A DNA stretch of 64,000 nt from an uncultured Clostridia bacterium (GTDB lineage: Bacteria > Bacillota > Clostridia > Christensenellales > Borkfalkiaceae), in contig CANRCK010000004.1 of NCBI GenBank assembly GCA_947629095.1, positions 57,080 to 121,079 on the forward strand, written 5' to 3'. The translations under genes were made by a program, and so were the position numbers. The notes under the pieces are model-generated. The model searched no databases, was not told the DNA's origin, and was given only the letters and a program-made list of their open reading frames with translations. Below, one piece after another: positions 1,936-61,936 of this stretch (position 1 is the first letter of the stretch; every line of letters starts with the position of its first letter).

Positions 1936-6148
<4,213 letters not shown>

Positions 6149-8132: not shown

Positions 8133-8147
8133 AATTTTATTAAAAAA

Positions 8148-8372
8148 GTCGCTGCGCGACAGATTCTTCGTCGGGCTGCGCCCTCCTCAGAATGACAGGA
8201 GAGGGAAAGCGGAAGAGGGCAAGTTTGGGTTGCCGCATACATATTTAAATAATTTATGGTGCAAACAGGGAATTATCAATCCCCTCAGTCTCGCGTTGCT
8301 CGACAGCTCCCCCTACTACGGGGAGCCAAGGAATAAGAAGCGATGACAGCTCCTCTTACTAAGGGGCACGAA
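8148..8372. repeat. extragenic repeat cluster: inverted family-B end plus a family-A unit and a degenerate half unit
   Basis: 8148-8199 GTCGCTGCGCGACAGATTCTTCG...CCTCAGAATGACAGG is the reverse complement of the family-B left end. 8281-8332 is CCCCTCAGTC...GACAGCTCCCCCTACTACGGGGAGCCAAGG. 8342-8372 is a decayed hairpin-2 copy. Confidence 0.8.
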
Positions 8373-8440
8373 GTCTGCAACGGATTAAATACAAGCAAGA
8401 CAAGGGGCGCGCAACCGCACGAAAATTTTTGTGAACTTTT

Positions 8441-9545: not shown

Positions 9546-9981
9546 TACCTGAAGATATGCGAAATTTATTCGCTTGAAAGTGAGGAGCCAAGGGCTTCCC
9601 CGCCTGTCATTCTGAGGCGTTAGCCGAAGAATCTGTTGCGAAGCAACTTTTCCGTTTCTACATTCCCCGAGCAAACCACGGGGGATTCTTTCGCTCAATC
9701 GCCCGCTTTCAGCGGGTCTCATTTCGACTCAAAATGACAAAGCTTTAATTGACATTGCCCCCTCAGTCACCTGCGGTGACAGCTCCCCCCACAAGTGAGG
9801 GCAGCCAAGGGTGAGTGCCATTACGAAGTTAACGGTGGGTAGAAGCGAGTTATGCAAGGCGCGCGAGGAAAACTTGAAGGAGCGTACATAGACGTACGTG
9901 TCGTACCGAAGGCGTTAGCCTTACTGAAAGTTGCCGCAGCGCAACACAGCAGAACAACGCTTATACACGCCGCCGCGGCAG
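9546..9981. repeat. composite repeat array (A-half, B, A, C) filling the secA-prfB intergenic region
   Basis: A 3' half at about 9575-9596 (GTGAGGAGCCAAGGG), family B at 9605-9739, family A at 9757-9811, diverged family C at 9820-9981. Same order as at 58701-59107. Confidence 0.85.
9605..9739 (+). mobile_element. family-B 135-bp MITE-like element with terminal inverted repeats
   Basis: Ends TGTCATTCTGAG ... CTCAAAATGACA (11/12 inverted match). Internal hairpins GTTGC-GAA-GCAAC, CCCCG-N9-CGGGG, CCCGC-TTTCA-GCGGG. A second copy of identical length lies at 58771-58905. Confidence 0.75.
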
Positions 9982-12900
9982 CTATACTATTTTGCCGTGG
10001 CACTTTTTATACTTCAACCCCGACCCGCACGGACATGGGTCGTTTGGTCCTATCTTCTTTTTTTCGTTTACCTTGGGAAGGGCTTTGCCGCCGATATTTG
10101 CGGCTAAGTCCTGCGGAGGCATGGGTGCGTCGCCTATTACCGGTCCGCTTAAAGGTCCAACGCGATTTATTTGGGTGGATTGCGGCTGACCCCGAACGGG
10201 AGCTTCGCCCTGACTATTTTGCGTATTCTGCGTATTTTGGGCGTTTTGGGCGTTTTGGGCTTCACGCGCTTCGATTTCCTTTACACGCTGCTCCATAATC
10301 TGCTGCGCGCGGGCAAAAACGCCGGGGTTCATGGGCGCGTGGTCGTTGCTTTCGGGGGTGGGTATTACCTGCTTGCGGACGGGAGCCTGCGGAGCCACGC
10401 GGACTATTCTGCCCTTTAACAGACGGGAAATGGTGGTTGTTTGCACGCGCTCTATCATCTCCTCAAACATCTCGTAACCTTCGGTTTTGTAGGAAATTAC
10501 GGGGTCCTGCTGGGCGTAGCCGCGCAAGCCTATGCCCTTCCTGAGCTGGTCCATGGCGTCTATGTGGTCTATCCAGTTTCTGTCCACGCTTCTCAAAAGC
10601 TCGTTGCGCTCGATTTGGTGATAGTCGACCTGACCGCCTGTCATTTCGCTTACGTTGACTATTTTTTGCTCGTACGCGTTTATGACTTCCTTGCTGATTT
10701 TTTGGATTGCGCGCTCGTAATTCCACTTTTCGAGCATTTCGCGGGTGATTTCAAAGGTGCATTCGTCGGGATATACCTTTTGGCGGAGAGCCTCGTTTAA
10801 AGCGGACTCATCCCACTTTTCGGGCATTTCTTCGGTGTTGACCGTTTCCCCGACAATCTTTTCGACGTAGTCGGGAATGTATTTGAGCATTTGCTCGTGC
10901 ACGTCCTCGCCCTTTAAAACTTTCATACGCTCGCCGTAGATGGTTTTGCGCTGCTCGTTCATAACCTCGTCGTATTGGAGGGTGTTCTTTCTTATACCGA
11001 AGTTCCTGCCCTCGATTGCGCGCTGGGCGTTTTCTATGGATCGGGTGAGCATTTTGGATTGCAGACACTGGTCCTCGTCTATTTTGAATACGGAGTAGAG
11101 CTTTTTCATGCTCTCTCCGCCGAAACGCTTTGCAAGATCGTCCTCAAGGGAAATGAAGAACACGGAGTCGCCCGGGTCGCCCTGTCGACCCGAACGTCCG
11201 CGGAGCTGGTTGTCGATACGGCGGCTTTCGTGCCGTTCGGTGCCGATTATACATAATCCGCCCGCGGCGATGACCTGCTGCTTTTCGGCGTCGGTCTCCT
11301 TTTTATACATTTCGTACAGCTCGGCATAACGCGCCCTTGCAACCTGCTCTTCCTCGGTGAATTCGCGGTCGGCGTAGGAGATTGCAACCTCTACCATGTC
11401 GTGGTCGTAGCCTTCCTCCCGCATGCGCTTTTTGGCAAGATATTCGGGGTTGCCGCCCAAAAGGATATCGGTGCCGCGTCCTGCCATGTTGGTGGCTATG
11501 GTTACGGCGTTGAGTCTGCCCGCCTGCGCTACGATTTCGGCTTCGCGCGCGTGGTTTTTGGCGTTTAAGATGTTGTGCTTTATGCCGTTGCGGCGGAGAA
11601 GCCTTGAAATTTCCTCAGACTTATCCACGGTGACTGTACCTATAAGTATGGGCTGACCCTTTGCGTGGCGCTCGACCACCTCGTTGACGATGGCGCGCTT
11701 TTTGCCCTCTACCGTGGAATAGATCATATCGGCATAGTCCACCCTCTTTACGGGGCGGTTGGTGGGAATGGGAACGACGTCGAGGGAGTAGATAGTTCTG
11801 AACTCGTCCTCTTCGGTTTTTGCAGTACCCGTCATTCCCGAGAGCTTTTTATAGAGCCTGAAATAATTTTGGAACGTTACGGTGGCGTGGGTTTTGTTCT
11901 CCTCCTTTACCTTGACGTGTTCCTTTGCCTCGATTGCCTGATGGAGACCGTCGGAATACCGCCTGCCGTTGAGAATACGGCCGGTAAATTCGTCGACGAT
12001 GAGTATTTCGCCATCGTCGGAGACAATGTACTCTTCGCCGTTGTGGAACAGCTCGTGAGCCTTTAACGCCTGCTGTATGTGGTGGTTGAGGTCGGCGTTT
12101 TCCACGTCGCCGAGGTTCTGTATGCCAAAGAATCTTTCGGCTTTTTCGGCGCCCTTTTCGGTGATTGTGACGGACTTATCCTTGCGGTCGATTATATAGT
12201 CCCAATTCTCCATTTCCTCGAGAATGGATATAAGGCGGTCCTGCGCTTCCTGTTCCTCTTTGGAAAGCTCCTTCTTCTTGCGGGAAGGCGCCTTTTTTTC
12301 CGCCTCCTTTTTGTCGTCGTCGAAGCCGCCCGAAAGCGTGCGGACAAACCTGTCCACGTCCTCGTACAGCTTTGAGCTTTCGCCGCCCCTGCCGGAAATG
12401 ATCAAAGGGGTACGCGCTTCGTCTATGAGTATGGAGTCGACCTCGTCGATTATGCAGAAGTTCAGCTCGCGCTGGACCATTGCGGGAATGGAAGTTTTTA
12501 AGTTGTCGCGCAGATAATCGAAGCCCAGCTCGTTGTTGGTGGCGTAGATTATATCGCTTTGATAGCTCGTTTGCTTATCCTTGTCGTCCATTCCGGGAAC
12601 CACTACGCCGACGGTTAGCCCCATGAATTTGTGAACCTTGCCCATCCACTCGGCGTCACGCCGGGCAAGATAGTCGTTTACGGTTACTATATGGACGCCG
12701 TGCCCCGTGAGCGCGTTGAGATAGGCGGGAAGGGTTGAAACGAGGGTTTTGCCTTCGCCCGTCTTCATTTCGGCGATTCTGCCCTGGTGGAGACAGATGC
12801 CGCCCATTATCTGGACGTGGAAGTGCTTCATTTTTAAAACGCGCCAGCTTGCCTCGCGCAGGGCGGCAAAGGCGTCGTAGAGGATATCGTCGAGCGTTTC

Positions 12901-18435: not shown

Positions 18436-19323
18436 TTAAGCGAAAGGAAACGGGAAAAGGGGCGTTATTGCGTTGACAAGAATGCCGCAAAGATAGGAAA
18501 CGGCGTAGAGAACAAAGATTATGGCAAGGTTGGTTTTTATAAGCTTTGGGTTTTTGAGAAGAATTACAAAGCCCATGCCAGCGTTTACTACGAGACCTGC
18601 CGTCAAGCTGCCAAAGGTGATGACGCCGCTCGTGAATGCGGAAGTTAAAATTACGCTCGACGCACAGCCCGGGATGAGACCCACAGCCGCGGTGATAAGG
18701 GGTTGGAGATAGGAATTTACGGCAAGGGAGCCGGATATGCGGTCCTCTCCAACATAATATATGAGCGTGCCGAACAGAAAGTTTACAACAAAGAGATACA
18801 GGGCGATTTTAAGGGCGTGAAGCAAAGGATAGAGAAAAAAGAGCTTCCACGGGGAGTCGTCGCCCGATTCGTGCTCGCAGGAATATTCCGTGGAGCTGTC
18901 GAACTGACCGACTTCGGCAACCTTTTCCCTGACAAGAATGGCGTTTGCGGCGTAGCCGACAATCAATGCCAATAAAAATTTAATTATGAGAAGGGGCAAA
19001 ACAGCCGAGAGCGCGGAGACGTTGGTGACGTCGGATAACAGTAAAATGACCGCCTCGTCGGAGGTGGCAATGAATACCGCAAGCAGGGCGCCGGTGCGGA
19101 TATATTTCTTTTCGTAGAGCTTTGCAGCCATAACCGAAAAACCGCACAGCGGTACAAGACCGGCGGCGGAACCGATGAGCGGGGCAAAGCTGCCCTGTAA
19201 AATTTTGCGGTTGCCGAATACCGATGTTTTGTGCTCGATTACTTCTATTATTATATAGATGAGTAAAAGAAAGGGAAAGAGCTTGGCGGTATCCAGCAAC
19301 GCGTCAATAAAAACGTTTAGCAT
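18436..19323 (-). CDS. polytopic membrane protein, possibly of the ArsP_2 'putative 10TM heavy-metal exporter' family
   Basis: 295 aa, about 9-10 hydrophobic spans. N-terminus MLNVFIDALLDTAKLFPFLLL resembles that family as I remember it. Adjacent to the metal module. Confidence 0.5.
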   Translation of the reverse strand: MLNVFIDALLDTAKLFPFLLLIYIIIEVIEHKTSVFGNRKILQGSFAPLIGSAAGLVPLCGFSVMAAKLYEKKYIRTGALLAVFIATSDEAVILLLSDVTNVSALSAVLPLLIIKFLLALIVGYAANAILVREKVAEVGQFDSSTEYSCEHESGDDSPWKLFFLYPLLHALKIALYLFVVNFLFGTLIYYVGEDRISGSLAVNSYLQPLITAAVGLIPGCASSVILTSAFTSGVITFGSLTAGLVVNAGMGFVILLKNPKLIKTNLAIIFVLYAVSYLCGILVNAITPLFPFPFA

Positions 19324-19332
19324 TTATTTGAA

Positions 19333-19511
19333 AAATTGCGAAGGTATGCGGCGGGTAGAAGCGAGAAATTGCGGAGTTATCAAGCGGTTAGAAACGAGCA
19401 AGACAAGGAGCGTGCGTAAGCGACGACGGGAGCGTACATAGACGTACGTGACCGAGGAGCGCGCAAACGCGACACAGTATTGCGAAGTTTATAATCCGCT
19501 TGAAGCGTGAG
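19333..19511 (+). repeat. family-C extragenic element (full copy)
   Basis: Three ~30-nt internal direct repeats (TTGCGAAGGTATGCGGCGGGTAGAAGCGAG / TTGCGGAGTTATCAAGCGGTTAGAAACGAG / TTGCGAAGTTTATAATCCGCTTGAAGCGTGAG) plus a central hairpin CGTAC-ATAGAC-GTACG. Ends at the base before the stop codon 19512-19514. Confidence 0.8.
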
Positions 19512-20735
19512 CTACCTGAGTTTCTTTTTGGGCGCCTCCTTCTTAGGCTTCAACTTTTCCATTTTTTCACACTCTTCGGGATAGGGCATGGGAACGAAAT
19601 CCGCGTCCTTTTTGCCCGTTTGGATATAGCCGCCGTCCCTTGAAAGAAGGGTGAGGCGCGTTTCGGAATCAAATATATAGAGCCTTGAAAGGTCCACGGC
19701 AAGGTGAGTTTCGGCGCCGCTTGCGCACTCCGCGGCATATGTTACTATTACGGGCTGACCTGCAAGGTCGCACTCGGCGTAGGTAACTTCGCCGTCCGCT
19801 TCGGTTTTGCCGAGAGTTGCAAAAAGCTCCCCCTCCGCCGAGGTTTTTATGTCCTCGGGACGGATACCTATTATTATGGGCTTGCCGGATTCGGCGTATT
19901 CCGAGACGGCTTGGAATCTGTCAACAATTTTGGAATCAAGCGGAAGCTTTCCGCCCTTAAATTCCACAAAATAGCCTTCCCCTTCCTTTATGACTTTTGC
20001 GTTCTGCAAAAAGTTTATGGTGGGCGAACCTATAAAAAACGCAACGTAGGTGTTTACGGGGTAATCGTAGAGATTGGCGGGGCAGTCTATTTGCTGCACG
20101 AAGCCGTTCTTTAAAATGACGAGGCGGGTGCCTATGGTCAAAGCTTCGGAGAGGTTTTTTGTGGCGTAGACAAACGTTCCGTTTACGCGCGCCTGAACGT
20201 TTATTATTACGCTGAGGACGTCGCGGCGGAGATCGCTGTCTATGCCGGCGAGAGGCTCGTCAAAGAGGTATAGTTTGGGTTCGCGGACCATCGCCCTGCC
20301 TATTGCAACGCGCTGGCGGGCGGCGGAATTGAGGACCTTGGGCTTGCGGTAGAGAAGGTCGGTTAGCCCTAAAATTCCCGCAACGGACTTGACGCGGCTG
20401 TCCACAAGAGCCTGCGGAGCCTTGCGCAGCCTTAAACCGAACGCCATATTGTCGTAGACGGTGAGCGCGGGATACAGCGTATCCTGCCTGAATACCATTG
20501 CTATATCCCTGTTTTTTGGGTCCACCTCCGCCATATCCTTGCCGTCGATGTACACCGAACCTACGGAAGCCTCCTCAAGACCCGCTATTACCTTTAAAAG
20601 GGAACTTTTACCGCACTTTTCATTGCCGACGACAACTATAAATTCCCTGTCGTCCGCCTCTAAATTGACGTCGTAGAGGGCTGTCTCACCCGAGAGATAG
20701 ACCTTGCCAACTCCGCTTAACTTTAAACTTGCCAT
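19512..20735 (-). CDS. orphan MalK/MsmX-like ABC ATPase with degenerate catalytic motifs
   Basis: 407 aa, aligns by eye along E. coli MalK including the C-terminal regulatory domain (FIGSPTINF). Walker A GNEKCGKS. Signature LNSAA instead of LSGGQ. H-loop ATKNL instead of THDQ. Confidence 0.85.
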   Translation of the reverse strand: MASLKLSGVGKVYLSGETALYDVNLEADDREFIVVVGNEKCGKSSLLKVIAGLEEASVGSVYIDGKDMAEVDPKNRDIAMVFRQDTLYPALTVYDNMAFGLRLRKAPQALVDSRVKSVAGILGLTDLLYRKPKVLNSAARQRVAIGRAMVREPKLYLFDEPLAGIDSDLRRDVLSVIINVQARVNGTFVYATKNLSEALTIGTRLVILKNGFVQQIDCPANLYDYPVNTYVAFFIGSPTINFLQNAKVIKEGEGYFVEFKGGKLPLDSKIVDRFQAVSEYAESGKPIIIGIRPEDIKTSAEGELFATLGKTEADGEVTYAECDLAGQPVIVTYAAECASGAETHLAVDLSRLYIFDSETRLTLLSRDGGYIQTGKKDADFVPMPYPEECEKMEKLKPKKEAPKKKLR

Positions 20736-28890: not shown

Positions 28891-29012
28891 CCGGGTCTTA
28901 ATTACTTTGTCGCTTGACAGGCGGCAGCTCAAATCAAGCGGCGCGTCGCCGCACCCGGGTATCTTAATTACTTTGTCGCTTGACAGGCGACAGCTCAAAT
29001 CAAGCGGCGCGT
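28891..29012 (+). repeat. two tandem 66-bp direct repeats related to family-A hairpin 1
   Basis: CTTAATTACTTTGTCGCTTGACAGGCG(G/A)CAGCTCAAATCAAGCGGCGCG occurs twice with a period of 66 nt (28897 and 28963). Contains GTCGC-TTGACAG-GCGAC followed by AGCTC, and the inverted pair CGCTTGA/TCAAGCG. Confidence 0.85.
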
Positions 29013-29080
29013 TGCGCATCAAATAATAACCGAACCGCCCAAAGGGCGGTTGGACAAATCTAAAAAAAGACGATAATAAA

Positions 29081-29905
29081 ATGATAAAAATAGATTACGA
29101 CGCAAAATATTTTAATCCTCTGCATACCCTTGACTGCGGGCAGATTTTCAGGTTCGAACCGTTCAAAGAGGGATTTTTGGTGTTTTCCGGGGATAGGGCG
29201 TGCTACGTTTACTCCGACGGAAAAAAGACCTTTGTGCAGTGCGAGGACGGGGATTATTTTTATAACTTTTTCGATCTTGCGCGCGACTACGCGGGGATTG
29301 TGGAAAAGGCAAAGAGCTATAACCTGCCGTTGCTTTCAAAGAGCGCGGAGAGCTGCTCGGGGCTGAGGCTTTTGAACCAGCAAAAGGAGGAAATGATTTA
29401 CTCCTTTATAATTTCCCAAAACAACAACATACCGAGGATAAAGGGAATTATTTCGCGCATATGCGGGGGGTTAGGCGAAAAAAGAGAGTTTATGGGCGTT
29501 GAGTACAGCGCATTCCCCACTACCCGCGCCCTTGCCGCGGCGGGAGCGGAGTTTTTTAAAAATGCGGGCTGCGGATACCGCGATAAATTTTTGGACGAAA
29601 CCGCCAAAAGGATTCAAGGCGAAGGCATTGAATATCTTGAAAAACTGAATACGTGTGAGCTGAAAAGGGCTTTGATGGGATACAAGGGCGTTGGCGCGAA
29701 GGTTGCCGACTGCATTGCGCTGTTCGGATTTGCAAAGCGGGACAGCTTCCCCGTGGATACGTGGATTGAAAAAATTTACAGGGAGGACTTTGGCGGAACG
29801 CTTACCGACAGAAACAAGATATGCGATTACTTTTTGGGGCTGTTCGGGGAAAATTCGGGGTATATGCAACAGTATTTATTTTACGGAAAACGGCTAAACT
29901 TATAA
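29081..29905 (+). CDS. ogg: 8-oxoguanine DNA glycosylase/AP lyase (Ogg, HhH-GPD)
   Basis: 274 aa. HhH-GPD motif LMGYKGVGAKVADCIALFGFAKRDSFPVDTWI with the catalytic Lys and Asp. Confidence 0.8.
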   Translation: MIKIDYDAKYFNPLHTLDCGQIFRFEPFKEGFLVFSGDRACYVYSDGKKTFVQCEDGDYFYNFFDLARDYAGIVEKAKSYNLPLLSKSAESCSGLRLLNQQKEEMIYSFIISQNNNIPRIKGIISRICGGLGEKREFMGVEYSAFPTTRALAAAGAEFFKNAGCGYRDKFLDETAKRIQGEGIEYLEKLNTCELKRALMGYKGVGAKVADCIALFGFAKRDSFPVDTWIEKIYREDFGGTLTDRNKICDYFLGLFGENSGYMQQYLFYGKRLNL

Positions 29906-37649: not shown

Positions 37650-37704
37650 GTAATACTGTTACGCTAAAATTGGGAAGGTGTGGTAACCTGAAGAGATACC
37701 GTGC

Positions 37705-37736
37705 GGTGTGCTCTTTCGGGCACACCTTATTTTTTA
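37705..37736 (+). terminator. leader terminator/attenuator immediately upstream of the LRR gene RBS
   Basis: GGTGTGCTC-TTTC-GGGCACACC then TTATTTTTTA. The RBS AGAGGAGA starts 7 nt later. An upstream GGTGTG (37677-37682) could compete for the CACACC arm. Confidence 0.7.
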
Positions 37737-37754
37737 TCGCACAGAGGAGAAACA

Positions 37755-39782
37755 ATGAAGAAAAAAGTATTTATTGCACTTTTGGCTCTTTTAAGCGTAA
37801 TATGTGTTGCGTTGGGGCTTACTGCATGTAATGGCGGTTCAAGCTTTGTATTTGAATTAACGGGTGATTCATACACTTTAAAAAAATATAATGGTACAGA
37901 AACGGAAGTGGTTATACCCGAAAAATATAATAATTTGCCCGTAACAGCTATCGACGGTAGTGCGTTCTATGAGTGCAAAAGCCTTATAAGCATAGATATA
38001 CCTAACAGTGTTACATCTATAGGCTCTGAGGCGTTCTATAATTGCAAAAACCTTACAAACATAACCATACCCGACAGTGTTACTTCTATCGGCGGCGGTG
38101 CGTTCGCGTATACAGCCTATTACAATAATGCAAATAATTGGATAAATAATGTTTTGTATATTGACAATCATTTGATTGTGGCAAAAGAAACACTTTCCGG
38201 CAACTATGATATACGGCAAGGGACAAAAACTATTGCCGACGGTGCGTTTAGTCGTTGCACAAGCCTTACAAGCATAACCATTCCCGACAGCGTTACTTCT
38301 ATCGGCGGTTGGACGTTCGAGAATTGCACAAGCCTTACAAGCATAAACATTCCCGACAGCGTTACTTCTATCGACGTTTTGGTGTTCTGGAATTGCACAA
38401 GCCTTACAGACATAACCATACCCAACAGCGTTACTTCTATCGGCGATAGTGCGTTCTCAAGTTGCACAAACCTTGAAAGTATAACCATACCCGACAGCGT
38501 TACTTCTATCGGCGGCGGTGCGTTCGAGAATTGCGCAAGCCTTACAAGCGTAACTATACCCGACAGCGTTACTTCTATCGGCGGCGGTGCGTTCGAGAAT
38601 TGCGCAAGCCTTACGGGAGTTTATATAACGCATATTAAGGCGTGGTGCAATATTGATTTTGGTTGGTTTGCTAACCCGTTGTATTATGCACACAACCTTT
38701 ATTTAAATGAAGAACTTGTAACCGAGATTACTGCTGATATGTTGCAGGGAGTAAAAGAAATTAAAGATTATGCGTTCGCGGGTTTCGGAGGAACAAATAT
38801 AACCATACCTAACAGTGTTACATCTATAGGCTCTGAGGCGTTCTATAATTGCAAAAACCTTACAAACATAACTATACCTGACAGTGTTACTTCTATCGGC
38901 AACCGTGCGTTCTATGGTTGCAAAAGCCTTACAAGCATAACCATACCCAACAGCGTTACTTCTATCGGCGATAGTGCGTTCTCAAGTTGCACAAACCTTG
39001 AAAGTATAACCATACCTAACAGTGTTACATCTATAGGCTCTGAGGCGTTCTATAATTGCAAAAACCTTACAAACATAACCATACCCGACAGTGTTACTTC
39101 TATCGGCGGCGGTGCGTTCGCGTATACAGCCTATTACAATAATGCAAATAATTGGATAAATAATGTTTTGTATATTGACAATCATTTGATTGTGGCAAAA
39201 GAAACACTTTCCGGCAACTATGATATACGGCAAGGGACAAAAACTATTGCCGACGGTGCGTTTAGTCGTTGCACAAGCCTTACAAGCATAACCATTCCCG
39301 ACAGCGTTACTTCTATCGGCGGTTGGACGTTCGAGAATTGCACAAGCCTTACAAGCATAAACATTCCCGACAGCGTTACTTCTATCGACGTTTTGGTGTT
39401 CTGGAATTGCACAAGCCTTACAGACATAACCATACCCGATAGCGTTACTTCTATCGGCGGCGGTGCGTTCGAGAATTGCACAAGCCTTACAAGCATAAGC
39501 ATTCCCGATAATGTTACTTCTATCGGAAATGGTGCGTTCCAAGGTTGCACAAGCCTTACAGGCATAACCATTCCCGACAGCGTCACTTCTATCGGCGGCG
39601 GTGCGTTCAGTAGTTGCGCAAGCCTTGAAAGCATAACATTTGAAAATACTACGGGCTGGACGGTTTCGCCATATTACGATATGTCAAACGTTCAAAGCGT
39701 AAACGTGACAGACGCAGCCCAAAACGCAACTTATTTAAAATCAACTTATAGCGGTTATTTATGGCAGCGGTATGATAATTAA
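37755..39782 (+). CDS. BspA-type leucine-rich-repeat (LRR_5) surface lipoprotein
   Basis: Start at ATG 37755 (MKKKVFIALLALLSVICVALGLTAC, lipobox LTAC; AGAGGAGA RBS). About 25 repeats of the type ITIPDSVTSIGxxAFxNCTSLTS. Visibly AT-richer than its flanks. Confidence 0.85.
   Translation: MKKKVFIALLALLSVICVALGLTACNGGSSFVFELTGDSYTLKKYNGTETEVVIPEKYNNLPVTAIDGSAFYECKSLISIDIPNSVTSIGSEAFYNCKNLTNITIPDSVTSIGGGAFAYTAYYNNANNWINNVLYIDNHLIVAKETLSGNYDIRQGTKTIADGAFSRCTSLTSITIPDSVTSIGGWTFENCTSLTSINIPDSVTSIDVLVFWNCTSLTDITIPNSVTSIGDSAFSSCTNLESITIPDSVTSIGGGAFENCASLTSVTIPDSVTSIGGGAFENCASLTGVYITHIKAWCNIDFGWFANPLYYAHNLYLNEELVTEITADMLQGVKEIKDYAFAGFGGTNITIPNSVTSIGSEAFYNCKNLTNITIPDSVTSIGNRAFYGCKSLTSITIPNSVTSIGDSAFSSCTNLESITIPNSVTSIGSEAFYNCKNLTNITIPDSVTSIGGGAFAYTAYYNNANNWINNVLYIDNHLIVAKETLSGNYDIRQGTKTIADGAFSRCTSLTSITIPDSVTSIGGWTFENCTSLTSINIPDSVTSIDVLVFWNCTSLTDITIPDSVTSIGGGAFENCTSLTSISIPDNVTSIGNGAFQGCTSLTGITIPDSVTSIGGGAFSSCASLESITFENTTGWTVSPYYDMSNVQSVNVTDAAQNATYLKSTYSGYLWQRYDN
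37998..38423 (+). repeat. 426-nt intragenic segment, copy 1 of a perfect duplication
   Basis: Identical base for base, by my reading, to 39012-39437 (offset 1014 nt = 338 codons). Confidence 0.9.
39012..39437 (+). repeat. 426-nt intragenic segment, copy 2 of a perfect duplication
   Basis: Identical to 37998-38423. A further ~80-nt identical pair lies at 38412-38490 and 38938-39016. Confidence 0.9.
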
Positions 39783-39992: not shown

Positions 39993-41105
39993 TTATCTTT
40001 TGCGGATTTGGGAGACAATTTGTTTGAGGGCCTCCACCGTTTTATCCGCCTCCGCGCGGGTGTTGTGTTTGCCGAAAGTGAAGCGGACGGCGCTTTTTGC
40101 GCGCTCTACGCCCGCAACCGCCGTTACCACGTGCGAGGGCGTGACCGCGCCCGCGGAGCATGCAGAGCCTGTGGAAACGCATATGCCGTTTAAATCAAGA
40201 CACATCAAAATATTTGCGCCGTCGCAGCCCTGAAAGGAGATGTTTGCGTTTGACGGAACGCGCAAAACGGAATCGCCGTTTAGAACCGTGCCGTGTATTT
40301 CGGAGAGCACGCGCCCCACGAAATAATCGCGCAAACTCAATATATATGCGTTGTTTTTGCCTTCGGCGGCGCGTTCCAAAGCCGCGGCAAGCCCGACAGC
40401 CGAGGCGACGTTTACGGTGCCGCCGCGCAGCCCCCGCTCCTGCATGCCGCCCGAAACAAGGGGGGAAATATTGCTGCCGCTTTTTATATACATTGCGGCA
40501 ACGCCCTTGGGACCGTTGAACTTGTGAGCGGAGACGGCAAACGCCGAGGCTTTTTGGGGGAATGGCACAACGCCAACCGACTGAACGCAGTCGCAGTAGT
40601 AAAAAATGCCGTACCGTGTGCAGATTTCCGAAATTTTTTGGACCGGTTGAATGGCGCCTATTTCGTTATTGGCTGCCATTACGGCGCAAAAAACGGTGTT
40701 GGGGCGAACGGCTTTTTCCACCTCTTCGGGGGAAATTATTCCGTTTTTATCGGGCTGAACAAAGGTTACTTCAAAGCCAAAGTTCTGCATTTGCCTTGCG
40801 CTCTCCAACACTGCGGGGTGCTCGATGGCGGAGATTATGAGATGCCCGCTACCATGCGCGGCGCACACCCCTTTTACCGCCAAATTGCCCGCTTCGGTGC
40901 CGCCCGAGAGAAAATATACCTCCTCCGCCCTGCAGCCGAAGATTTTTGCAACCCTGTCGCGCGCGGAAATAAGTCCCTCCGCCGCCGCTCTGCCCGCAGC
41001 GTGCTGGGATTGGGGATTGCCGTATTCGGTTTGCAAATACGGCAACATCTCCCTTAAAACCGCATCGTCCAAAGGAGTTGTTGCCGCGTTGTCAAGATAT
41101 ATCAT
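39993..41105 (-). CDS. cysteine desulfurase (NifS/IscS class V aminotransferase)
   Basis: 370 aa. PLP-lysine motif SAHKFNGPKG and catalytic Cys loop STGSACSAG. Confidence 0.88.
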   Translation of the reverse strand: MIYLDNAATTPLDDAVLREMLPYLQTEYGNPQSQHAAGRAAAEGLISARDRVAKIFGCRAEEVYFLSGGTEAGNLAVKGVCAAHGSGHLIISAIEHPAVLESARQMQNFGFEVTFVQPDKNGIISPEEVEKAVRPNTVFCAVMAANNEIGAIQPVQKISEICTRYGIFYYCDCVQSVGVVPFPQKASAFAVSAHKFNGPKGVAAMYIKSGSNISPLVSGGMQERGLRGGTVNVASAVGLAAALERAAEGKNNAYILSLRDYFVGRVLSEIHGTVLNGDSVLRVPSNANISFQGCDGANILMCLDLNGICVSTGSACSAGAVTPSHVVTAVAGVERAKSAVRFTFGKHNTRAEADKTVEALKQIVSQIRKR

Positions 41106-46213: not shown

Positions 46214-46332
46214 GCCCCCTCAGTCATTAAAATGACAGCTCCCCCCACTTGTGGGGGGAGCCAAGAGGTTGGTGTGCGGCGGTAGCGACATACACGGCGC
46301 AAGGAAAACGCCGTACCGGGACTGAGGGGGGC
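46214..46332 (+). mobile_element. family-A element bounded by terminal inverted repeats (MITE-like, ~120 bp)
   Basis: Left end GCCCCCTCAGTC (46214-46225), right end GACTGAGGGGGGC (46320-46332). Internal hairpins GTCATT-AAA-ATGAC, GCTCCCCCCAC-TT-GTGGGGGGAGC, ACGGCG-N9-CGCCGT. Confidence 0.75.
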
Positions 46333-51353: not shown

Positions 51354-51529
51354 ATTACGGAGTTATGCGGTGGGTAGAATCAAGAAATTACGGAGTTGGC
51401 AAGCGGTTAGAAGCGAGCAGAGCAAGGAAAGCGAGCACCGTCTGCAGGGAGTGTACACAGACGTACACGACCAAAGCGGCGCGGAGCTTGACACAGCTAT
51501 GCGACGCTTATAATCCGCTTGGCGGGAGC
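51354..51529 (+). repeat. family-C extragenic element (full copy)
   Basis: ATTACGGAGTTATGCGGTGGGTAGAATCAAG / ATTACGGAGTTGGCAAGCGGTTAGAAGCGAG / ...CTTATAATCCGCTTGGCGGGAGC. The central hairpin here reads GTGTAC-ACAGAC-GTACAC. Confidence 0.8.
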
Positions 51530-51530
51530 A

Positions 51531-51567
51531 ATAAAAAAATAGGACTTGTCGGATACGACAAGTCCAT
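51531..51567 (-). terminator. intrinsic terminator after rpsI (palindromic, usable in both directions)
   Basis: GGACTTGTCG-GATA-CGACAAGTCC flanked by A7 and T7 runs. Confidence 0.88.
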
Positions 51568-51571
51568 TTTT

Positions 51572-51985
51572 TTATCTCTTGCTGAACTGGGGAGCGCGAC
51601 GGGCTTTCTTTAAGCCGTACTTCTTTCTTTCCTTTACGCGAGGGTCGCGCGTTAAGAAGCCTTCCTTTTTGAGTGCGGGACGGGAACCTTCTTCCGCCTG
51701 AAGAAGCGCCCTTGCTATGCCCAAACGGATGGCGCCTGCCTGACCGGTGGTGCCGCCGCCGTACACGTTTACCAAAACGTCGTACTTGGAGGTTACGCCC
51801 AAAAGTTCAAGGGGTTGCTTTACTACGTATTGCAGAACGGACTGAGGGAAGTAGTCCTCAAAGGTTCTGCCGTTTATTTGAATAACTCCCGTTCCTGCGG
51901 GAATGAGGCGAACGCGGGCGATTGCCTTCTTTCTTCTGCCTGTCCCCCAGAATTGCAGTTTTTTCTTTAAATTAGTTTTAGCCAT
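51572..51985 (-). CDS. rpsI: 30S ribosomal protein S9
   Basis: 137 aa. [12 protein letters not shown] and C-terminal [12 protein letters not shown]. Confidence 0.95.
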
Positions 51986-57567: not shown

Positions 57568-57594
57568 TTGGTTGCGGGAAATTTTTTTATATTG

Positions 57595-57623
57595 TTGACA
57601 TATACAAAAGTATTTGATAAAAT
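57595..57623 (+). promoter_or_regulatory. promoter of structured RNA module 1
   Basis: TTGACA, 17-nt spacer, TAAAAT, preceded by an A/T-rich UP-like tract. Nearly identical to 57844-57872. Confidence 0.6.
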
Positions 57624-57629
57624 TATATC

Positions 57630-57812
57630 GGTGTGAGAACCTGTACAAACGTATAAATTCCCGATTTTCGGAGTATACCCTATCGGTAGGGCTATACTCT
57701 TAATCGCGTTAAAACATACTCTGAAAACGGGAGTTTTAAAGGTCTCTCACACCTTGCGGGAAAGGTATAAGTTCTATATGCCGTTCTTGCAAAAGGACGG
57801 CATTTTATTATT
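57630..57812 (+). ncRNA. structured RNA module 1 (~180 nt; long bulged hairpin, conserved apical motif, terminator)
   Basis: P1 57630-57641 / 57741-57753 (12 bp). P2 57655-57676 / 57716-57736 (21 bp). Apical CCCTA-TCGG-TAGGG plus TTAATCGC. Terminator ATGCCGTTCTT-GCAA-AAGGACGGCAT then TTTATTATT (57778-57812). Confidence 0.55.
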
Positions 57813-57843
57813 CGTTTGTTTGCAGGAAAAATTTTTTATATTA

Positions 57844-57872
57844 TTGACTTATACAAAAGTATTTGATAAAAT
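57844..57872 (+). promoter_or_regulatory. promoter of structured RNA module 2
   Basis: TTGACT, 17-nt spacer, TAAAAT. The spacer TATACAAAAGTATTTGA is identical to module 1. Confidence 0.6.
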
Positions 57873-57878
57873 TAAGTA

Positions 57879-58051
57879 GCCAAGTATACTTTATTACAAT
57901 TTGCAAATTTTAAAGGTATTCCCTATCGGTAGGGTTATACTTTTTAATCGCATTACAAAAAAATACTTTAAAATTTGCGTAATAAAATGCTTGGCAGCTG
58001 GCGAGAAAGGTATAAGTTCTATATGCCGTTCTTGCAAAGGAACGGCATTTT
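57879..58051 (+). ncRNA. structured RNA module 2, doubling as the 5' leader of the SLOG gene
   Basis: P1 57879-57887 / 57987-57995 (9 bp). P2 57891-57919 / 57963-57985 (23 bp with bulges). Same apical CCCTATCGGTAGGG...TTAATCGC. Hairpin 58023-58048 contains the AAGGA RBS and ends 3 nt before ATG 58052. Confidence 0.55.
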
Positions 58052-58486
58052 ATGTTGAGTTGCGCATTTTTCGGTCATCGGTCGTTTGAATATTCAAAAT
58101 ACAGGGAAAAAACCAAAGGCATTATTTCCGAGCTTATAACGAAGTTCGGCGTAACGACTTTTTACGACGGTTGCCGCGGGGATTTTGATTTATTTTGCGC
58201 AGAAATAGTAGGCGAACTGAAAGTTGAATTTCCGGAAATAAAGCTCATTTACATACTGTCATATATACCTCAAAATAAACTTCTGCTGCCAAAAATTTTT
58301 GATGAATCCATGTATCTGCTTGAAGAGAGCGTGCCGCCAAAGTACGCAATAAGCCGCACAAACAGAAAGCTGGTTGAACTTGCAGACTATATAATTTCGG
58401 GGACATACTGCACATTCGGCGGAGCCTATACGGCACAGAACTACGCAAAAAGATGCAATAAACGGGTGATAAACATTTTTAATTGA
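58052..58486 (+). CDS. SLOG-superfamily protein (DUF1273/YpsA/YoqJ-like)
   Basis: 144 aa. N-terminal CAFFGHRSFEY resembles the (F/T)GHR motif of DUF1273 as I remember it. Rossmann-like alternation of hydrophobic strands. AT-rich gene. Confidence 0.6.
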   Translation: MLSCAFFGHRSFEYSKYREKTKGIISELITKFGVTTFYDGCRGDFDLFCAEIVGELKVEFPEIKLIYILSYIPQNKLLLPKIFDESMYLLEESVPPKYAISRTNRKLVELADYIISGTYCTFGGAYTAQNYAKRCNKRVINIFN

Positions 58487-58700: not shown

Positions 58701-59107
58701 GACAATCCCCTCAGTCACCTGCGGTGACAGCTTTCTCACGCGGCGTGAGGTCAGCCAAGAGCACCCCTCCTGTCATTCTGAGGAGTTAGCCGAAGAATCT
58801 GTTGCAATAAAACTTTTACCGTTTCTAATTTCCCCGAGCAGACCACGATGTGATTCTTGCGTTCAATCGCCCGCTTTCAGCGGGTCATTTCGACTCAAAA
58901 TGACACGGCTTAATTGCATTACCCCCTCTCAGGCTCGCTTTGCTCGACAGCTTTCTATTCTTGCCAAGTGAGTGAGTATAATTACGGAGTTAGCAAGCGG
59001 TTAGAAACGAGCAAGACAAGGAGCGTGCGTAAGCGATGGCGGGAGCGTACAAAAAACGCAAAGGCAACAAAGCTATGCGAAGTTTATAATCCGCTTGAAA
59101 CGTGAGC
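58701..59107. repeat. composite repeat array A-B-A-C
   Basis: Family A at 58701-58760, family B at 58771-58905, decayed A at 58917-58968, family C (lacking the first internal repeat and the central hairpin) at 58981-59107. Same order and orientation as 9546-9981. Confidence 0.85.
58771..58905 (+). mobile_element. family-B 135-bp MITE-like element, second copy
   Basis: Same termini (TGTCATTCTGAG ... CTCAAAATGACA) and the same length as 9605-9739. Roughly four fifths identical by eye, with small compensating indels. Confidence 0.75.
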
Positions 59108-61936
59108 TTATTCTGTGCGGAGAGCCACGACGGGATCCTTTTTAGCCGCCGCAGAAGCAGGGATAAGCCCCGATATCAACGTTAATATAACGCTTATGCC
59201 TATCATTATAAGCGCCTGCCAGAACGGAAGCGCGGCTATGTTGGGCACGCCGAACAGCGAACCGAGAATCAAGTTGAGCACGAGCGACAGAAGATAGGTT
59301 ACGCCTATGCCGACTATGCCTGCCGCAAGACCTATTATAAACGTTTCGGCATTGAAAAGCCGCTTTATATCCTTTTTTCTTGCACCTACGGCGCGGAGTA
59401 TGCCTATTTCCTTTATGCGCTCGACTACCGAGACGTACGTTATGATGCCCACCATTACCGTTGAAACCACAAGCGAGAGGGCGGTGAACGCCACAAGGGC
59501 TATGGTGATTATCTGAATCATGGTGTTGACCATAAATATTATCAGTCCTACTGTGTCGGAATAAGTTATTTTTTGCGCTTCACCGAGGTTTGAAACGGTT
59601 ATCTCCTCGCCCGCGCCGTTTACATATGTGAGAACGCCCGTGCCGTTCTCCCTGCACGCGTTGTTCCATTCGTCGAGATATCGGGTGACCAGATCCTTTG
59701 CGTCGAAATCGAGGGGGTATATTCTGATTCCCGACGGGATATCGCTGCCGGCAAGCATTGCGGCAGTTACCGCGTAGGGACTTGACCTATCGCCCGAGGA
59801 GGATGAACTGCCGCCCATCATCATCGACATCATATTTCCCATATCTGAAATACATGTGCAGCTTTGGCGCTTTTGGTAAACTCCTTTTTCTATAAACGTA
59901 TATTCGAAATTATACGGCAGAAAAGATAGCTCCTCATTTGCGGTTTGTTTTACATACTTTACTATTTCGCTTGCCATACCGTCTGAAAGAGTATGCTCTG
60001 TGAGCGCCCTTGTGTAGTACAGCCCCGACGGTAGACAGCCGTAGGATATACCCTTCTTTTTTTGAAGAATGGCGCGCACGTTCAAATCGATTTTGCCTTC
60101 GTCGGAAAAATTTGAACCTTCTACATTATATGTATAAACCGGTCGCTCGGCAGGAAAAATCCCAAGCTTAAACCTTTCATCACTTTCCGTGGTGCGGAAT
60201 ACGGTGTTTGAAGGATACCACGTAAACTTTTTGGAATCTTCGCCTATGAATTTTTTGTAATCCATACCGTTTTCAAGCAGATCGTTGCTTAAATCTCCGT
60301 TGTACTGGCTGTTATCCGCAGCTTTGAAGGCAAGGTTTAAAAATTCTTCCTCGTTCAGATAGCCGAACTGCCCGAAGTTCAGGTCGGTGAACTCGTTGTC
60401 GTCCACCACCATTATTAGGCTCGATTTGTCGCCGAAAACAGAGCCAAGCTCCTCATCTGTAAGTTTTTCGGTTTTGCCGAGGTCGGTGGCGAGAATGTCG
60501 TACTGCGACAAAATATAGTTGTAGTTGTCGGGAAGCTCGGAAAACGACGTGACGGTGCTTATTATGCCGGAGTACTGCCCGTACTCGGGAACGTCGCCGA
60601 GGATAGCCGTGTACAGCGAACGGATGCCCGTTATGGAGTATTTGCCGCTCGTATCCGATTCGGGGTCGATTGCGCCGTCGGTCACCTTGAAGTCGGTGTA
60701 GATATAGTTTGACATATCGAAATTATAAGTGAACTGCAAGGCGTTATAGTAATCCGAGGGCATTGCCGCAACATAGTCGCGGTATTCGGCGGTGATATCG
60801 TTTGTGGTCATTGCGCCGCCGAAGTCCATCAATGTATCGAGAAGGGAATCGACGTACACCTTATCCTTGAGCTTTGTTATATCGGGCTTGGCGCCTGAAT
60901 TTTGCGCCGCGTCCATAAGAGAAGTGAAGTCGATAGTTTGCTCCGCAACGGAGAGAGGATAGCCCGAGAGCATATCGTTTTCCATACTTGCTATGTAGTT
61001 TTGGACGCCGGCGGAAATTGCAAGGACCATTGAAACGCCGATGATGCCTATGCTGCCCGCAAAGGAGACCATTGCCGTGCGCTTGCCCTTGGACATAAGA
61101 TTTTTAAGGGAGAGCATAAACGCCATTCCCATGGACATGGACGTCTTCTTTTTTCTGCCCTTGGATTTTTTGAGCTCTGCAACGCCGACGGGGGCGTCCG
61201 CCGTTTCAGCGGGCTGTTCATTTGAAGATTCCGCGGGCTGCTCACTTTCGGCATAGCCGTCGAAGGGCATAGTGTCGTCGGTGACTTCGCCGTCGAGAAG
61301 GCGGATTATGCGGGTGGAGTACTTTTCGGCAAGCTCGGGGTTGTGGGTGACCATAATCACGAGCCTATCCCTTGCAATCTCCTTTAAGAGTTCCATTATC
61401 TGGACGCTGGTCTTTGAATCGAGCGCTCCCGTTGGCTCGTCGGCAAGGACGATTTCGGGGTCGTTTATGAGGGCGCGGGCTATTGCAACCCTCTGCGCCT
61501 GACCGCCCGAGAGCTGGTTGGGCTTGTTCTTTAATTTATCGCCCAGACCCACTTTTTCGAGAGCTTCTATAGCGCGCTGTCTTCTCTCCTCCTTGCTGAC
61601 GCCCGAAATGGTGAGCGCAAGCTCCACGTTTTGCAGAATGGTCTGGTGGGGAATTAAGTGATAGCTTTGGAATATGAAGCCTATGGAGTGGTTGCGGTAG
61701 GTATCCCAGTCCCTGTCGTTATATTTTTTTGTGGACACGCCCTCTATCAAAAGGTCGCCGGAGGTGTATTTATCCAGCCCGCCTATTATGTTCAAAAGGG
61801 TGGTTTTTCCGCAGCCGGACGCGCCGAGTATGGAGACGAACTCGTTTTTGCGGAACTTTATGGAAATTCCGCGCAGGGCGTGAACGACCCCTCCCGCTAT
61901 GGGATAATCCTTTGTTATGTTGTTGAGTTCAAGCAT
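59108..61936 (-). CDS. fused ABC transporter: MacB/LolD-type ATPase plus FtsX-type permease with a large extracytoplasmic domain
   Basis: 942 aa. GASGCGKTT, LSGGQAQRVAIARAL, LADEPTGALD at the N-terminus. First TM segment near residue 290, a long soluble loop, then a C-terminal FtsX-like bundle of three TM helices. Confidence 0.9.
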   Translation of the reverse strand: MLELNNITKDYPIAGGVVHALRGISIKFRKNEFVSILGASGCGKTTLLNIIGGLDKYTSGDLLIEGVSTKKYNDRDWDTYRNHSIGFIFQSYHLIPHQTILQNVELALTISGVSKEERRQRAIEALEKVGLGDKLKNKPNQLSGGQAQRVAIARALINDPEIVLADEPTGALDSKTSVQIMELLKEIARDRLVIMVTHNPELAEKYSTRIIRLLDGEVTDDTMPFDGYAESEQPAESSNEQPAETADAPVGVAELKKSKGRKKKTSMSMGMAFMLSLKNLMSKGKRTAMVSFAGSIGIIGVSMVLAISAGVQNYIASMENDMLSGYPLSVAEQTIDFTSLMDAAQNSGAKPDITKLKDKVYVDSLLDTLMDFGGAMTTNDITAEYRDYVAAMPSDYYNALQFTYNFDMSNYIYTDFKVTDGAIDPESDTSGKYSITGIRSLYTAILGDVPEYGQYSGIISTVTSFSELPDNYNYILSQYDILATDLGKTEKLTDEELGSVFGDKSSLIMVVDDNEFTDLNFGQFGYLNEEEFLNLAFKAADNSQYNGDLSNDLLENGMDYKKFIGEDSKKFTWYPSNTVFRTTESDERFKLGIFPAERPVYTYNVEGSNFSDEGKIDLNVRAILQKKKGISYGCLPSGLYYTRALTEHTLSDGMASEIVKYVKQTANEELSFLPYNFEYTFIEKGVYQKRQSCTCISDMGNMMSMMMGGSSSSSGDRSSPYAVTAAMLAGSDIPSGIRIYPLDFDAKDLVTRYLDEWNNACRENGTGVLTYVNGAGEEITVSNLGEAQKITYSDTVGLIIFMVNTMIQIITIALVAFTALSLVVSTVMVGIITYVSVVERIKEIGILRAVGARKKDIKRLFNAETFIIGLAAGIVGIGVTYLLSLVLNLILGSLFGVPNIAALPFWQALIMIGISVILTLISGLIPASAAAKKDPVVALRTE

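Follow-up and report, generated by a model that had tools for sequence, protein, structure and literature searches.

A hairpin repeat family abutting stop codons in uncultured gut Clostridia

The locus described here raises the question why one and the same repeated element should begin directly behind the stop codons of quite different genes. The window, by which we mean the whole stretch of 64,000 nt that was analysed, contains four copies on the plus strand, and alignment as well as an HMM search reproduced the coordinates given for them in a preliminary description of this DNA: copy A at 9820-9981 (type 2, with a 22-nt internal insertion; 142.6 bits with a covariance model), copy B at 19333-19511 (type 1, full length; 145.9 bits), copy C at 51354-51529 (type 1, with two 5' units; 136.9 bits) and copy D at 58981-59107 (type 1, with one 5' unit; 77.8 bits). 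The copies align with each other, and an HMM built from them re-finds all four in the window with nhmmer at E values of 7e-31 to 1.8e-41. The same HMM has an extra match that was missed at first, fragment E at 8368-8412 (plus strand), which lies in the spacer 8133-8440 and, according to the profile and to repeat comparison, represents a degenerate 5' arm of the element. A 21-position pattern for the 33-nt unit of the element matches the window six times, compared with 0.00 matches expected.

The junctions between genes and elements also agree with what had been reported, in that three of the four copies start 0-1 nt past the stop codon of a minus-strand gene. The secA gene ends with ...CHGKIV and a TAG at 9982-9984, which is followed by CTGCCGC of copy A; the TAG of the MalK-like ATPase gene (19512-19514) is followed by CTCACGC of copy B, which occupies the entire spacer up to the start codon of ArsP_2 (19321-19323); and the TAA of a fused ABC transporter gene (59108-59110) is followed by GCTCACG of copy D. 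The fourth copy, C, is set off from the rpsI stop codon (51572-51574) only by a canonical bidirectional intrinsic terminator on the minus strand, consisting of the hairpin 51542-51565 and its T-run. The C termini of the proteins encoded beside copies B and A are native, as homologues end with ...KKKLR* and ...CHGKIV*, respectively. A search of the window for tRNA and tmRNA genes returned none, and an exact look-up of the RpsI protein for other strains led back to the same strain only. The GC skew, considered as a guide to the direction of replication, is weakly positive on the plus strand, though the genes lie on the minus strand, and plus-strand ORFs just downstream of the copies are antisense shadows of real genes.

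Each copy consists of an imperfect hairpin of about 125 nt around a conserved core of about 105 nt, with one or two 33-nt units at one end. In copy B folding places the long hairpin at 19380-19503 (plus strand) and the apical hairpin, GCGTAC ATAGAC GTACGT, at 19432-19449; in copy C the long hairpin spans 51400-51521 (plus strand). The 33-nt unit (AATTRCGRAGKT..GYGGKTAGAARCGAG) is present as a tandem pair in copies B (19335-19367 and 19368-19400, plus strand, by repeat comparison and pattern) and C and as a single unit in copies A and D, and the second unit of copy B doubles as the 5' arm of the long hairpin. Three direct repeats of about 30 nt had been described initially; the tandem 5' units account for part of this observation, but the supposed third repeat is the 3' arm of the long hairpin. 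Likewise, the central hairpin taken as the main structure exists as the apical hairpin, but it is the long imperfect hairpin that dominates the fold. In copy D half of the apical hairpin is deleted, and the 22-nt insertion of copy A recurs in a copy from a metagenome-assembled genome (MAG). Read on the plus strand, the core has the layout ..AGAAGCGAGCAAGACAAGG..GGGAGYGTACAYAGACGTACRYGAC..ACACAGTATTGCGACGCTTATA, which is conserved including loop sequences and a G.A mismatch. All four Watson-Crick pair types occur in the outermost stem, which varies with the lineage or locus. The interior of the element is more conserved than its termini; the 33-nt units at the far end are a feature of the window lineage.

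The four window copies have many relatives elsewhere. In three related rabbit-gut MAGs of 'uncultured Clostridia bacterium' (CANQQD01, CANREJ01 and CANRKK01) the 33-nt-unit pattern found 12 real loci in addition to two chance hits; together the MAG loci comprise some 20 copies and fragments, which fall into at least three subtypes with compensatory differences between the two arms. The apical-hairpin motif GGAGYGTACAYAGACGTACRY was found in at least 120 metagenome stretches among the matches listed, with human gut named in two of the contig names; about ten of the listed stretches represent one conserved protein-coding gene that contains the motif by chance, whereas most of the remaining ones have a near-complete hairpin core. 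Several copies per contig, often in tandem, are found among these metagenome matches. A covariance model built from 12 copies yielded at least 112 matches in 100 sources. When 112 copies were fitted to this model, 91.7% of the cells were paired, 30 of 34 pairs showed changes on both sides (833 cells), and the covariation score was 0.523, compared with 0.149 for shuffled alignments and at most 0.09 with partners slid, all of these being figures from a model-guided alignment. An independent MAFFT/RNAalifold analysis of 12 copies recovered 21 compensatory pairs out of 34. The compensatory change that had been noticed in the central hairpin of one window copy proved to be general, the respective pair being C-G in 54 and U-A in 49 of the 104 copies listed.

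Rfam 15 gave no hits in the window at gathering thresholds and only noise for copies A and B in E-value mode (the best being Mahella-1 with 11 bits against a threshold of 70.7), no Rfam match to the elements was obtained in 15 metagenome loci, and plasmid and phage collections contained nothing similar. In a literature search of incomplete coverage we found no published description of the family. Family C, as the window copies had been termed, is the local subfamily of a widespread and apparently undescribed family of hairpin repeats in uncultured gut Clostridia. The elements can themselves be interrupted, as three copies, two in L007 (1606-1808 and 5315-5518) and one in L015 (3817-3969), contain a nested mini-insertion of some 55 nt (GCGCGAGGGCTTTGCCCGACGCTTTGGGTTAAAAGTTTTAGC..CTAAAACTTTCC) at an identical position. 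Two short-read contigs, L001 (ending at 4195) and L138 (ending at 4309), stop inside the element right past the MalK-like gene, which indicates that the repeat breaks short-read assemblies of these organisms. In L037 a Gut-1 RNA (RF01706; 1459-1534, minus strand), with 52.3 bits just above its threshold of 50, is located at a distance of 60 nt from two element copies.

How strictly the element keeps to gene ends can be judged from 12 independent members of the window subfamily whose 3' end is intact, found in the window and the three MAGs. All 12 turn the same (3') end towards the gene that ends there; eight are located 0-1 nt from the stop codon, three start right after the T-run of a terminator, and in the one remaining case (L009:7309) the EngB ORF extends into the element by 21 nt, its stop being the TAA of GGATTATAAGCG. 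TA or TAA is found at the junction of 11 out of 13 subfamily copies. For the wider family, distances were taken from an anchor, for which one alignment column was fixed in either arm of the conserved core. Among the 90 copies listed, an ORF of 80 aa or more that runs towards the element has its stop no more than 30 nt from the anchor in 51 cases at the 3' side and in 11 at the 5' side, and the tail of the longest flanking ORF (at least 100 aa) lies within 30 nt in 37 cases at the plus-strand 3' end versus 5 at the 5' end. The random scatter of distances and orientations against which the preliminary description had set its proposal was thus not seen. Eleven stops fall inside the TTATA motif of the core (in the mRNA, UAUAAGCG). 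Where the stop lies no more than about 10 nt from the predicted stem base, it is TAA in 29 cases, TAG in 7 and TGA in 3; these figures and the U-tract numbers given below are rough, since the automated procedure for extending the stem outwards frequently came to a halt at the conserved G.A mismatch.

Seven queA orthologues end with ...YRFFSFGDAMLIL*, their stop codon lying within the conserved TATAA motif of the element, and the last codons of queA form the outer stem together with the far flank, a pairing that covaries between the orthologues. The earlier statement that the element is located in the 3' UTR and not in coding sequence therefore holds for the genes beside copies A and B, with their native C termini, but not for engB and queA, where the reading frame enters the element. 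In L074, copies away from queA keep about 25 nt resembling the queA end (FGDAMMIV*), which suggests that the spreading unit can include former flanking sequence. Essential and housekeeping operons harbour copies in their interior, including secA-prfB, secY-[element]-adk-map-infA-[element], rpsP, queA and engB. A different arrangement is seen in L047 (PDWJ01066168.1), where a 16S-tRNA-tRNA-23S spacer (397-1533) contains four divergent copies and several extra 5' half-units; their orientation relative to transcription is opposite to the usual one, the plus strand being transcribed, and in three of the four copies the 3' end of the model extends up to the 5' end of either a tRNA (539, 788) or the 23S rRNA (1531).

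The reading we prefer, and to which we give about an even chance, is that of a REP/MITE-like, mobile but non-autonomous palindromic repeat, which would take the first nucleotides past the stop codon and be co-transcribed as a 3'-UTR or intercistronic hairpin. The position of the junction itself admits another view, in which the elements are not targeted at all: insertion with a preference for TA would occur anywhere, copies in genes, ribosome binding sites and promoters would be purged, and a deletion bias would let the survivors pile up at stop codons. The frequent TA or TAA at subfamily junctions is consistent with such a by-product, as is the observation that the junction is fixed relative to the gene while it varies by 0-10 nt relative to the element (TAG followed by CGTTGC in L138 and TAA followed by GCGCGG in L012, versus TAG followed by CTCCCGCC elsewhere); this shift of up to about 10 nt within the element leaves room for deletion up to the stop codon as a part of the explanation. 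Operon spacers are moreover tight, the secA-prfB spacer measuring down to 37 nt in relatives, so that little space is tolerated. However, either orientation should be equally harmless, and the polarity of the copies (12 of 12 in the subfamily; 37 versus 5 among the 90 copies listed) is thus left unexplained. In addition, the 440-nt, repeat-filled secA-prfB spacer of the window speaks against strong compaction, and the copies behind terminators begin exactly at the end of the T-run. We regard an origin of the pattern without any targeting as quite unlikely.

Gain and loss of copies, as the preferred reading of a mobile repeat would have it, is indicated by orthologous loci, where the comparison proposed with the initial description showed the element to be absent from relatives at both the MalK-like and the secA locus. 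Four relatives (85, 80, 79 and 76% amino acid identity) have no element in the MalK-like/ArsP_2 spacer but a GC hairpin and T-run directly past the TAA or TAG of the MalK-like gene, and copy B of the window occupies the place of this terminator. In the MAG CANREJ (84%) a type-2 element is found at the same MalK-like stop (TAG followed directly by CGTTGCGGCGTGTATAAGCG...), whereas the window has type 1, which implies either two independent arrivals or a conversion between subtypes. Between secA and prfB, three relatives (92, 90 and 88%) have a TAA and a spacer of 37-110 nt without the element; in the window, a TAG is followed by a 440-nt stack of repeats that starts at the stop codon, and the old spacer next to the ribosome binding site may survive at the far end of this stack. 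Conversely, two copies in L008 follow the orthologue of a window gene (39993-41105) behind which the window itself lacks the element. Stops that carry an element read TAG at the two loci compared (secA in the window; MalK-like in the window and L138), with the G readable as the first base of the element (GCTCCC...), whereas the element-free orthologues at the secA and MalK-like loci have TAA in six of seven cases. In this small sample, the difference fits an insertion between the TA and the final A of the stop codon; other copies read TAA followed by GCTC. Comparison of filled and empty MalK-like and secA loci revealed no direct target-site duplication.

Given that copy B stands where relatives have a terminator, the elements could themselves be unusually long intrinsic terminators, or cores inserted into the loops of pre-existing ones. 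They resemble intrinsic terminators in that a hairpin is located directly past the stop codon, and about 15 of the 66 metagenome copies listed have an A-run and a T-run around the outer stem (e.g. AAAAACGGTG...CACCGTTTTT). Yet the family differs by a stem of about 60 bp with conserved sequence and by the lack of a consistent U-tract: none follows the hairpin in the window subfamily and the queA copies, and U-tracts past the hairpin base were counted in only 7 and 4 of 88 cases with the unreliable stem-extension procedure. Copies located between the cistrons of essential, co-transcribed operons (secA-prfB, secY-adk) cannot be strong terminators. Insertion into a terminator loop at the MalK-like locus is unsupported, as no remnant of an ancestral terminator stem flanks copy B. 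Taken as an account of the family, the terminator explanation is highly improbable.

The conservation of the core has to be weighed against the preferred, mobile-repeat reading as well. The element might primarily be a cis-acting RNA motif, representing a new class for 3' UTRs and intercistronic regions, that is selected by the host and not selfish, its conserved internal loops and apical hairpin being read by a dedicated protein or an RNase; its base would have to lie at the stop codon for the terminating ribosome to open or close the hairpin and thus couple termination to decay, to reinitiation at the following cistron or to ribosome rescue. REPs within 15 nt of stop codons have been described as coupling termination to such outcomes. 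Loop and bulge sequences are kept across very diverse contigs while the stems covary, in queA orthologues the outer stem and the final codons covary, the element at the queA stop is kept in seven lineages, copies reside in essential operons, and one copy takes the place of a terminator-type hairpin, all of which would be expected for a host function. On the other hand, close relatives lack the element at the same loci, different subtypes are found at the same site, and the family shows tandem arrays, truncated copies, nested insertions and fragments, as is typical of selfish repeats. Furthermore, the mRNA strand is not favoured by the wobble counts: leaving out one fixed G-U pair, there are 82 G-U and 71 A-C combinations, which makes them uninformative as to the choice of strand. 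In view of these points we consider a host-selected motif unlikely.

The strand itself deserves attention, since the functional strand could be the plus strand, antisense to the gene, acting either as a convergent small structured RNA or as a single-stranded DNA hairpin for an HUH-type enzyme or a recombinase. This strand folds better in 59 of 65 copies, by 8 kcal/mol on average; a G-U pair at the base of the apical hairpin is fixed in 84 of the 104 copies listed, the G.A mismatch is conserved, the internal loops are purine-rich on this strand, and it is the transcribed strand in the rRNA spacer of L047. However, copy B lies between two co-directional minus-strand genes with 9 nt left to the next start codon, which leaves no room for a promoter of its own, and promoter and terminator scans around the window copies returned only the rpsI terminator and no associated promoter-like site. 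Once the one fixed pair is set aside, G-U and A-C counts are also balanced. We judge a plus-strand function to be very doubtful.

With respect to location, the closest precedent is found in REP sequences. Most REPs occupy spacers of unidirectional or convergent gene pairs, where fewer than 20 bp separate them from the 3' end of the ORF upstream; their termini often supply a TAG stop codon, their distance to the downstream ORF is variable, and they are believed to be co-transcribed and to function at the RNA level (Di Nocera et al. 2013, PMC3733652). The family shows the same location, close to the 3' end of the upstream ORF and with a terminus that can provide the stop, so that its stop-codon habit is precedented. 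Like REP/BIME elements (GTAG- or CGTC-tagged), it consists of multi-copy extragenic palindromes. However, REPs are 20-40 nt long, in contrast to 105-180 nt for the elements described here; the GTAG tag has a counterpart at the core boundary (GTAGA/GTAGG) in only about 14 of the 90 copies listed, the others having TTAGA, GAAGA, AGAGA etc.; and REPs are mainly proteobacterial, whereas this family occurs in gut Clostridia with an internal core conserved across many lineages. By element size and by the scarcity of GTAG, the family is not REP by definition.

BOX elements of Streptococcus pneumoniae are similar as modular repeats of Firmicutes with a variable short unit, boxB being comparable to the 33-nt unit. 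Their outer modules pair into a stable stem-loop; they are restricted to pneumococci and relatives, and their sequence is unrelated to the family. We know of no transposase for BOX and of no report that BOX elements abut stop codons. REPINs (Bertels & Rainey 2011, PMC3116915) share with the family a replicating hairpin of about 100 nt, populations of copies within genomes and long persistence; they are composed of two inverted REPs, each a palindrome, and their RAYT gene is flanked by copies, whereas the arms of the elements reported here are not palindromes. Bacterial MITEs (ERIC, Correia/NEMIS, RUP, YPAL, bcr1) are 100-200 bp long with 5'-TA-3' termini, their transcripts form long stem-loops, and they are co-transcribed with neighbouring genes and affect mRNA processing and stability (Delihas 2008, PMC2229807). 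Presence/absence polymorphism of the MITE type is seen at the MalK-like, secA and 39993-gene loci. Yet MITEs are bounded by conserved terminal inverted repeats, duplicate a TA target and have a parent IS; the termini of the family are variable, no terminal inverted repeats distinct from the hairpin arms could be defined, no duplication was found, and we know of no parent IS, which sets it apart from classical MITEs. Two other types of hairpin were considered and rejected: a SECIS- or PYLIS-type recoding signal does not fit with stops that are TAA and TAG at native C termini, and neither the R''/L''-L'/R' boxes of integron attC sites (RYYYAAC...GTTRRRY), looked for by eye on either strand, nor flanking genes other than housekeeping ones (secA, rpsI, queA, secY, infA, engB) were found.

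For the preferred reading of a mobile, non-autonomous repeat the following scenario can be proposed. Copies would be gained and lost locus by locus, mobilised by an enzyme acting in trans, and would settle in fixed polarity at the 3' boundary of genes, either at or after the TA of the stop codon or past the T-run of a terminator. The element would then be transcribed with the gene, essential operons included, so that the mRNA would carry a long stem-loop starting from 0-10 nt past the stop codon or extending across it. At the RNA level, this stem-loop might form a barrier to 3' exonucleases or a processing site and thereby set the 3' end and the stability of the upstream cistron. By analogy, an effect on the upstream cistron similar to that of REP/BIME elements and terminator stems is most likely, as one copy stands at the site of the relatives' terminator hairpin and others lie between the cistrons of essential operons. 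Several observations do not sit easily with this reading. Conservation is higher in the core than at the termini, opposite to what classical MITEs show and more in the manner of a functional RNA or DNA motif; the antisense strand folds better; and the copies in L047 are reversed. Moreover, clustering of 2329 flanking ORFs (about 0.8 Mb of flanks, 4-15 kb each) revealed no transposase or RAYT gene between or beside the copies, and the ORFs between neighbouring copies are housekeeping genes only.

The finding would be weightier if the core were bound by a factor or the stop codon actively targeted. That the conserved 105-nt core represents a new factor-bound motif and that placement at the stop is mechanistically required or actively targeted, beyond what a merely tolerated selfish repeat would show, is in our opinion conceivable, yet the chances are low. 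Insertion could, for example, be guided by the boundary between the translated and the untranslated part of a transcript; alternatively, the terminating ribosome could open the base of the hairpin and so control decay or downstream reinitiation. Small repeats and RNA motifs have received little attention in gut Clostridia, and the family is conserved and strongly covarying. It is a candidate post-transcriptional element for genes such as secA, queA, secY and infA. It also provides a ready marker and a natural system for asking why palindromic repeats hug stop codons, a habit that has been noted for REPs but to our knowledge has never been explained mechanistically.

Family C is not the only repeat in the window. 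In the secA-prfB spacer, copy A is adjoined by stacked modules at 9598-9819 (plus strand) comprising a GTCATTCTGAGG..GAAGAATC module, a CCCGCTTTCAGCGGG hairpin, TCGACTCAAAATGACA and a CAGCTCCCC..GGGGAGCCAAGG hairpin, and the same stack recurs beyond copy D (58764-58980). Within these stacks, some 170 nt (9598-9766 and 58764-58932) form a composite module of CCTGTCATTCTGAGG..GAAGAATC, the hairpin CCCGCTTTCAGCGGG and TCGACTCAAAATGACA, which has an inverted copy at 8150-8210; the GTCATTCTGAGG..GAAGAATC motif is presumably a repeat of many bacterial genomes. The GC-rich hairpin CAGCTCCCC-loop-GGGGAGCCAAGG constitutes a second family with at least six plus-strand copies (8304, 39900, 46236, 51213, 51265 and 51312; also at about 9780 and 39940), which are usually located just past family C on the side away from the gene, and the copy at 46236-46263 has a terminator-like score on the minus strand. 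A 693-aa ORF at 37701-39782 (plus strand) is composed of 69-nt (23-aa) tandem repeats, with at least 13 copies in three blocks; syntenic L008 lacks this ORF, and its spacer there contains other repeats along with copies of family C. At 57576-58053 a stretch of about 245 nt is duplicated in tandem; each duplicate has a near-consensus promoter (TTGACA/TAAAAT at 57595 and 57844), a conserved hairpin CCCTATCGGTAGGG and a terminator-like hairpin ATGCCGTTCTTGCAAAAGGACGGCAT with a T-rich tail behind it, and the two may represent copies of a small RNA gene. Finally, two 54-nt copies of 96% identity (TCTTAATTACTTTGTCGCTTGACAGGCGGCAGCTCAAATCAAGCGGCGCG) are found 66 nt apart at 28896-29015, upstream of a plus-strand gene at 29081.
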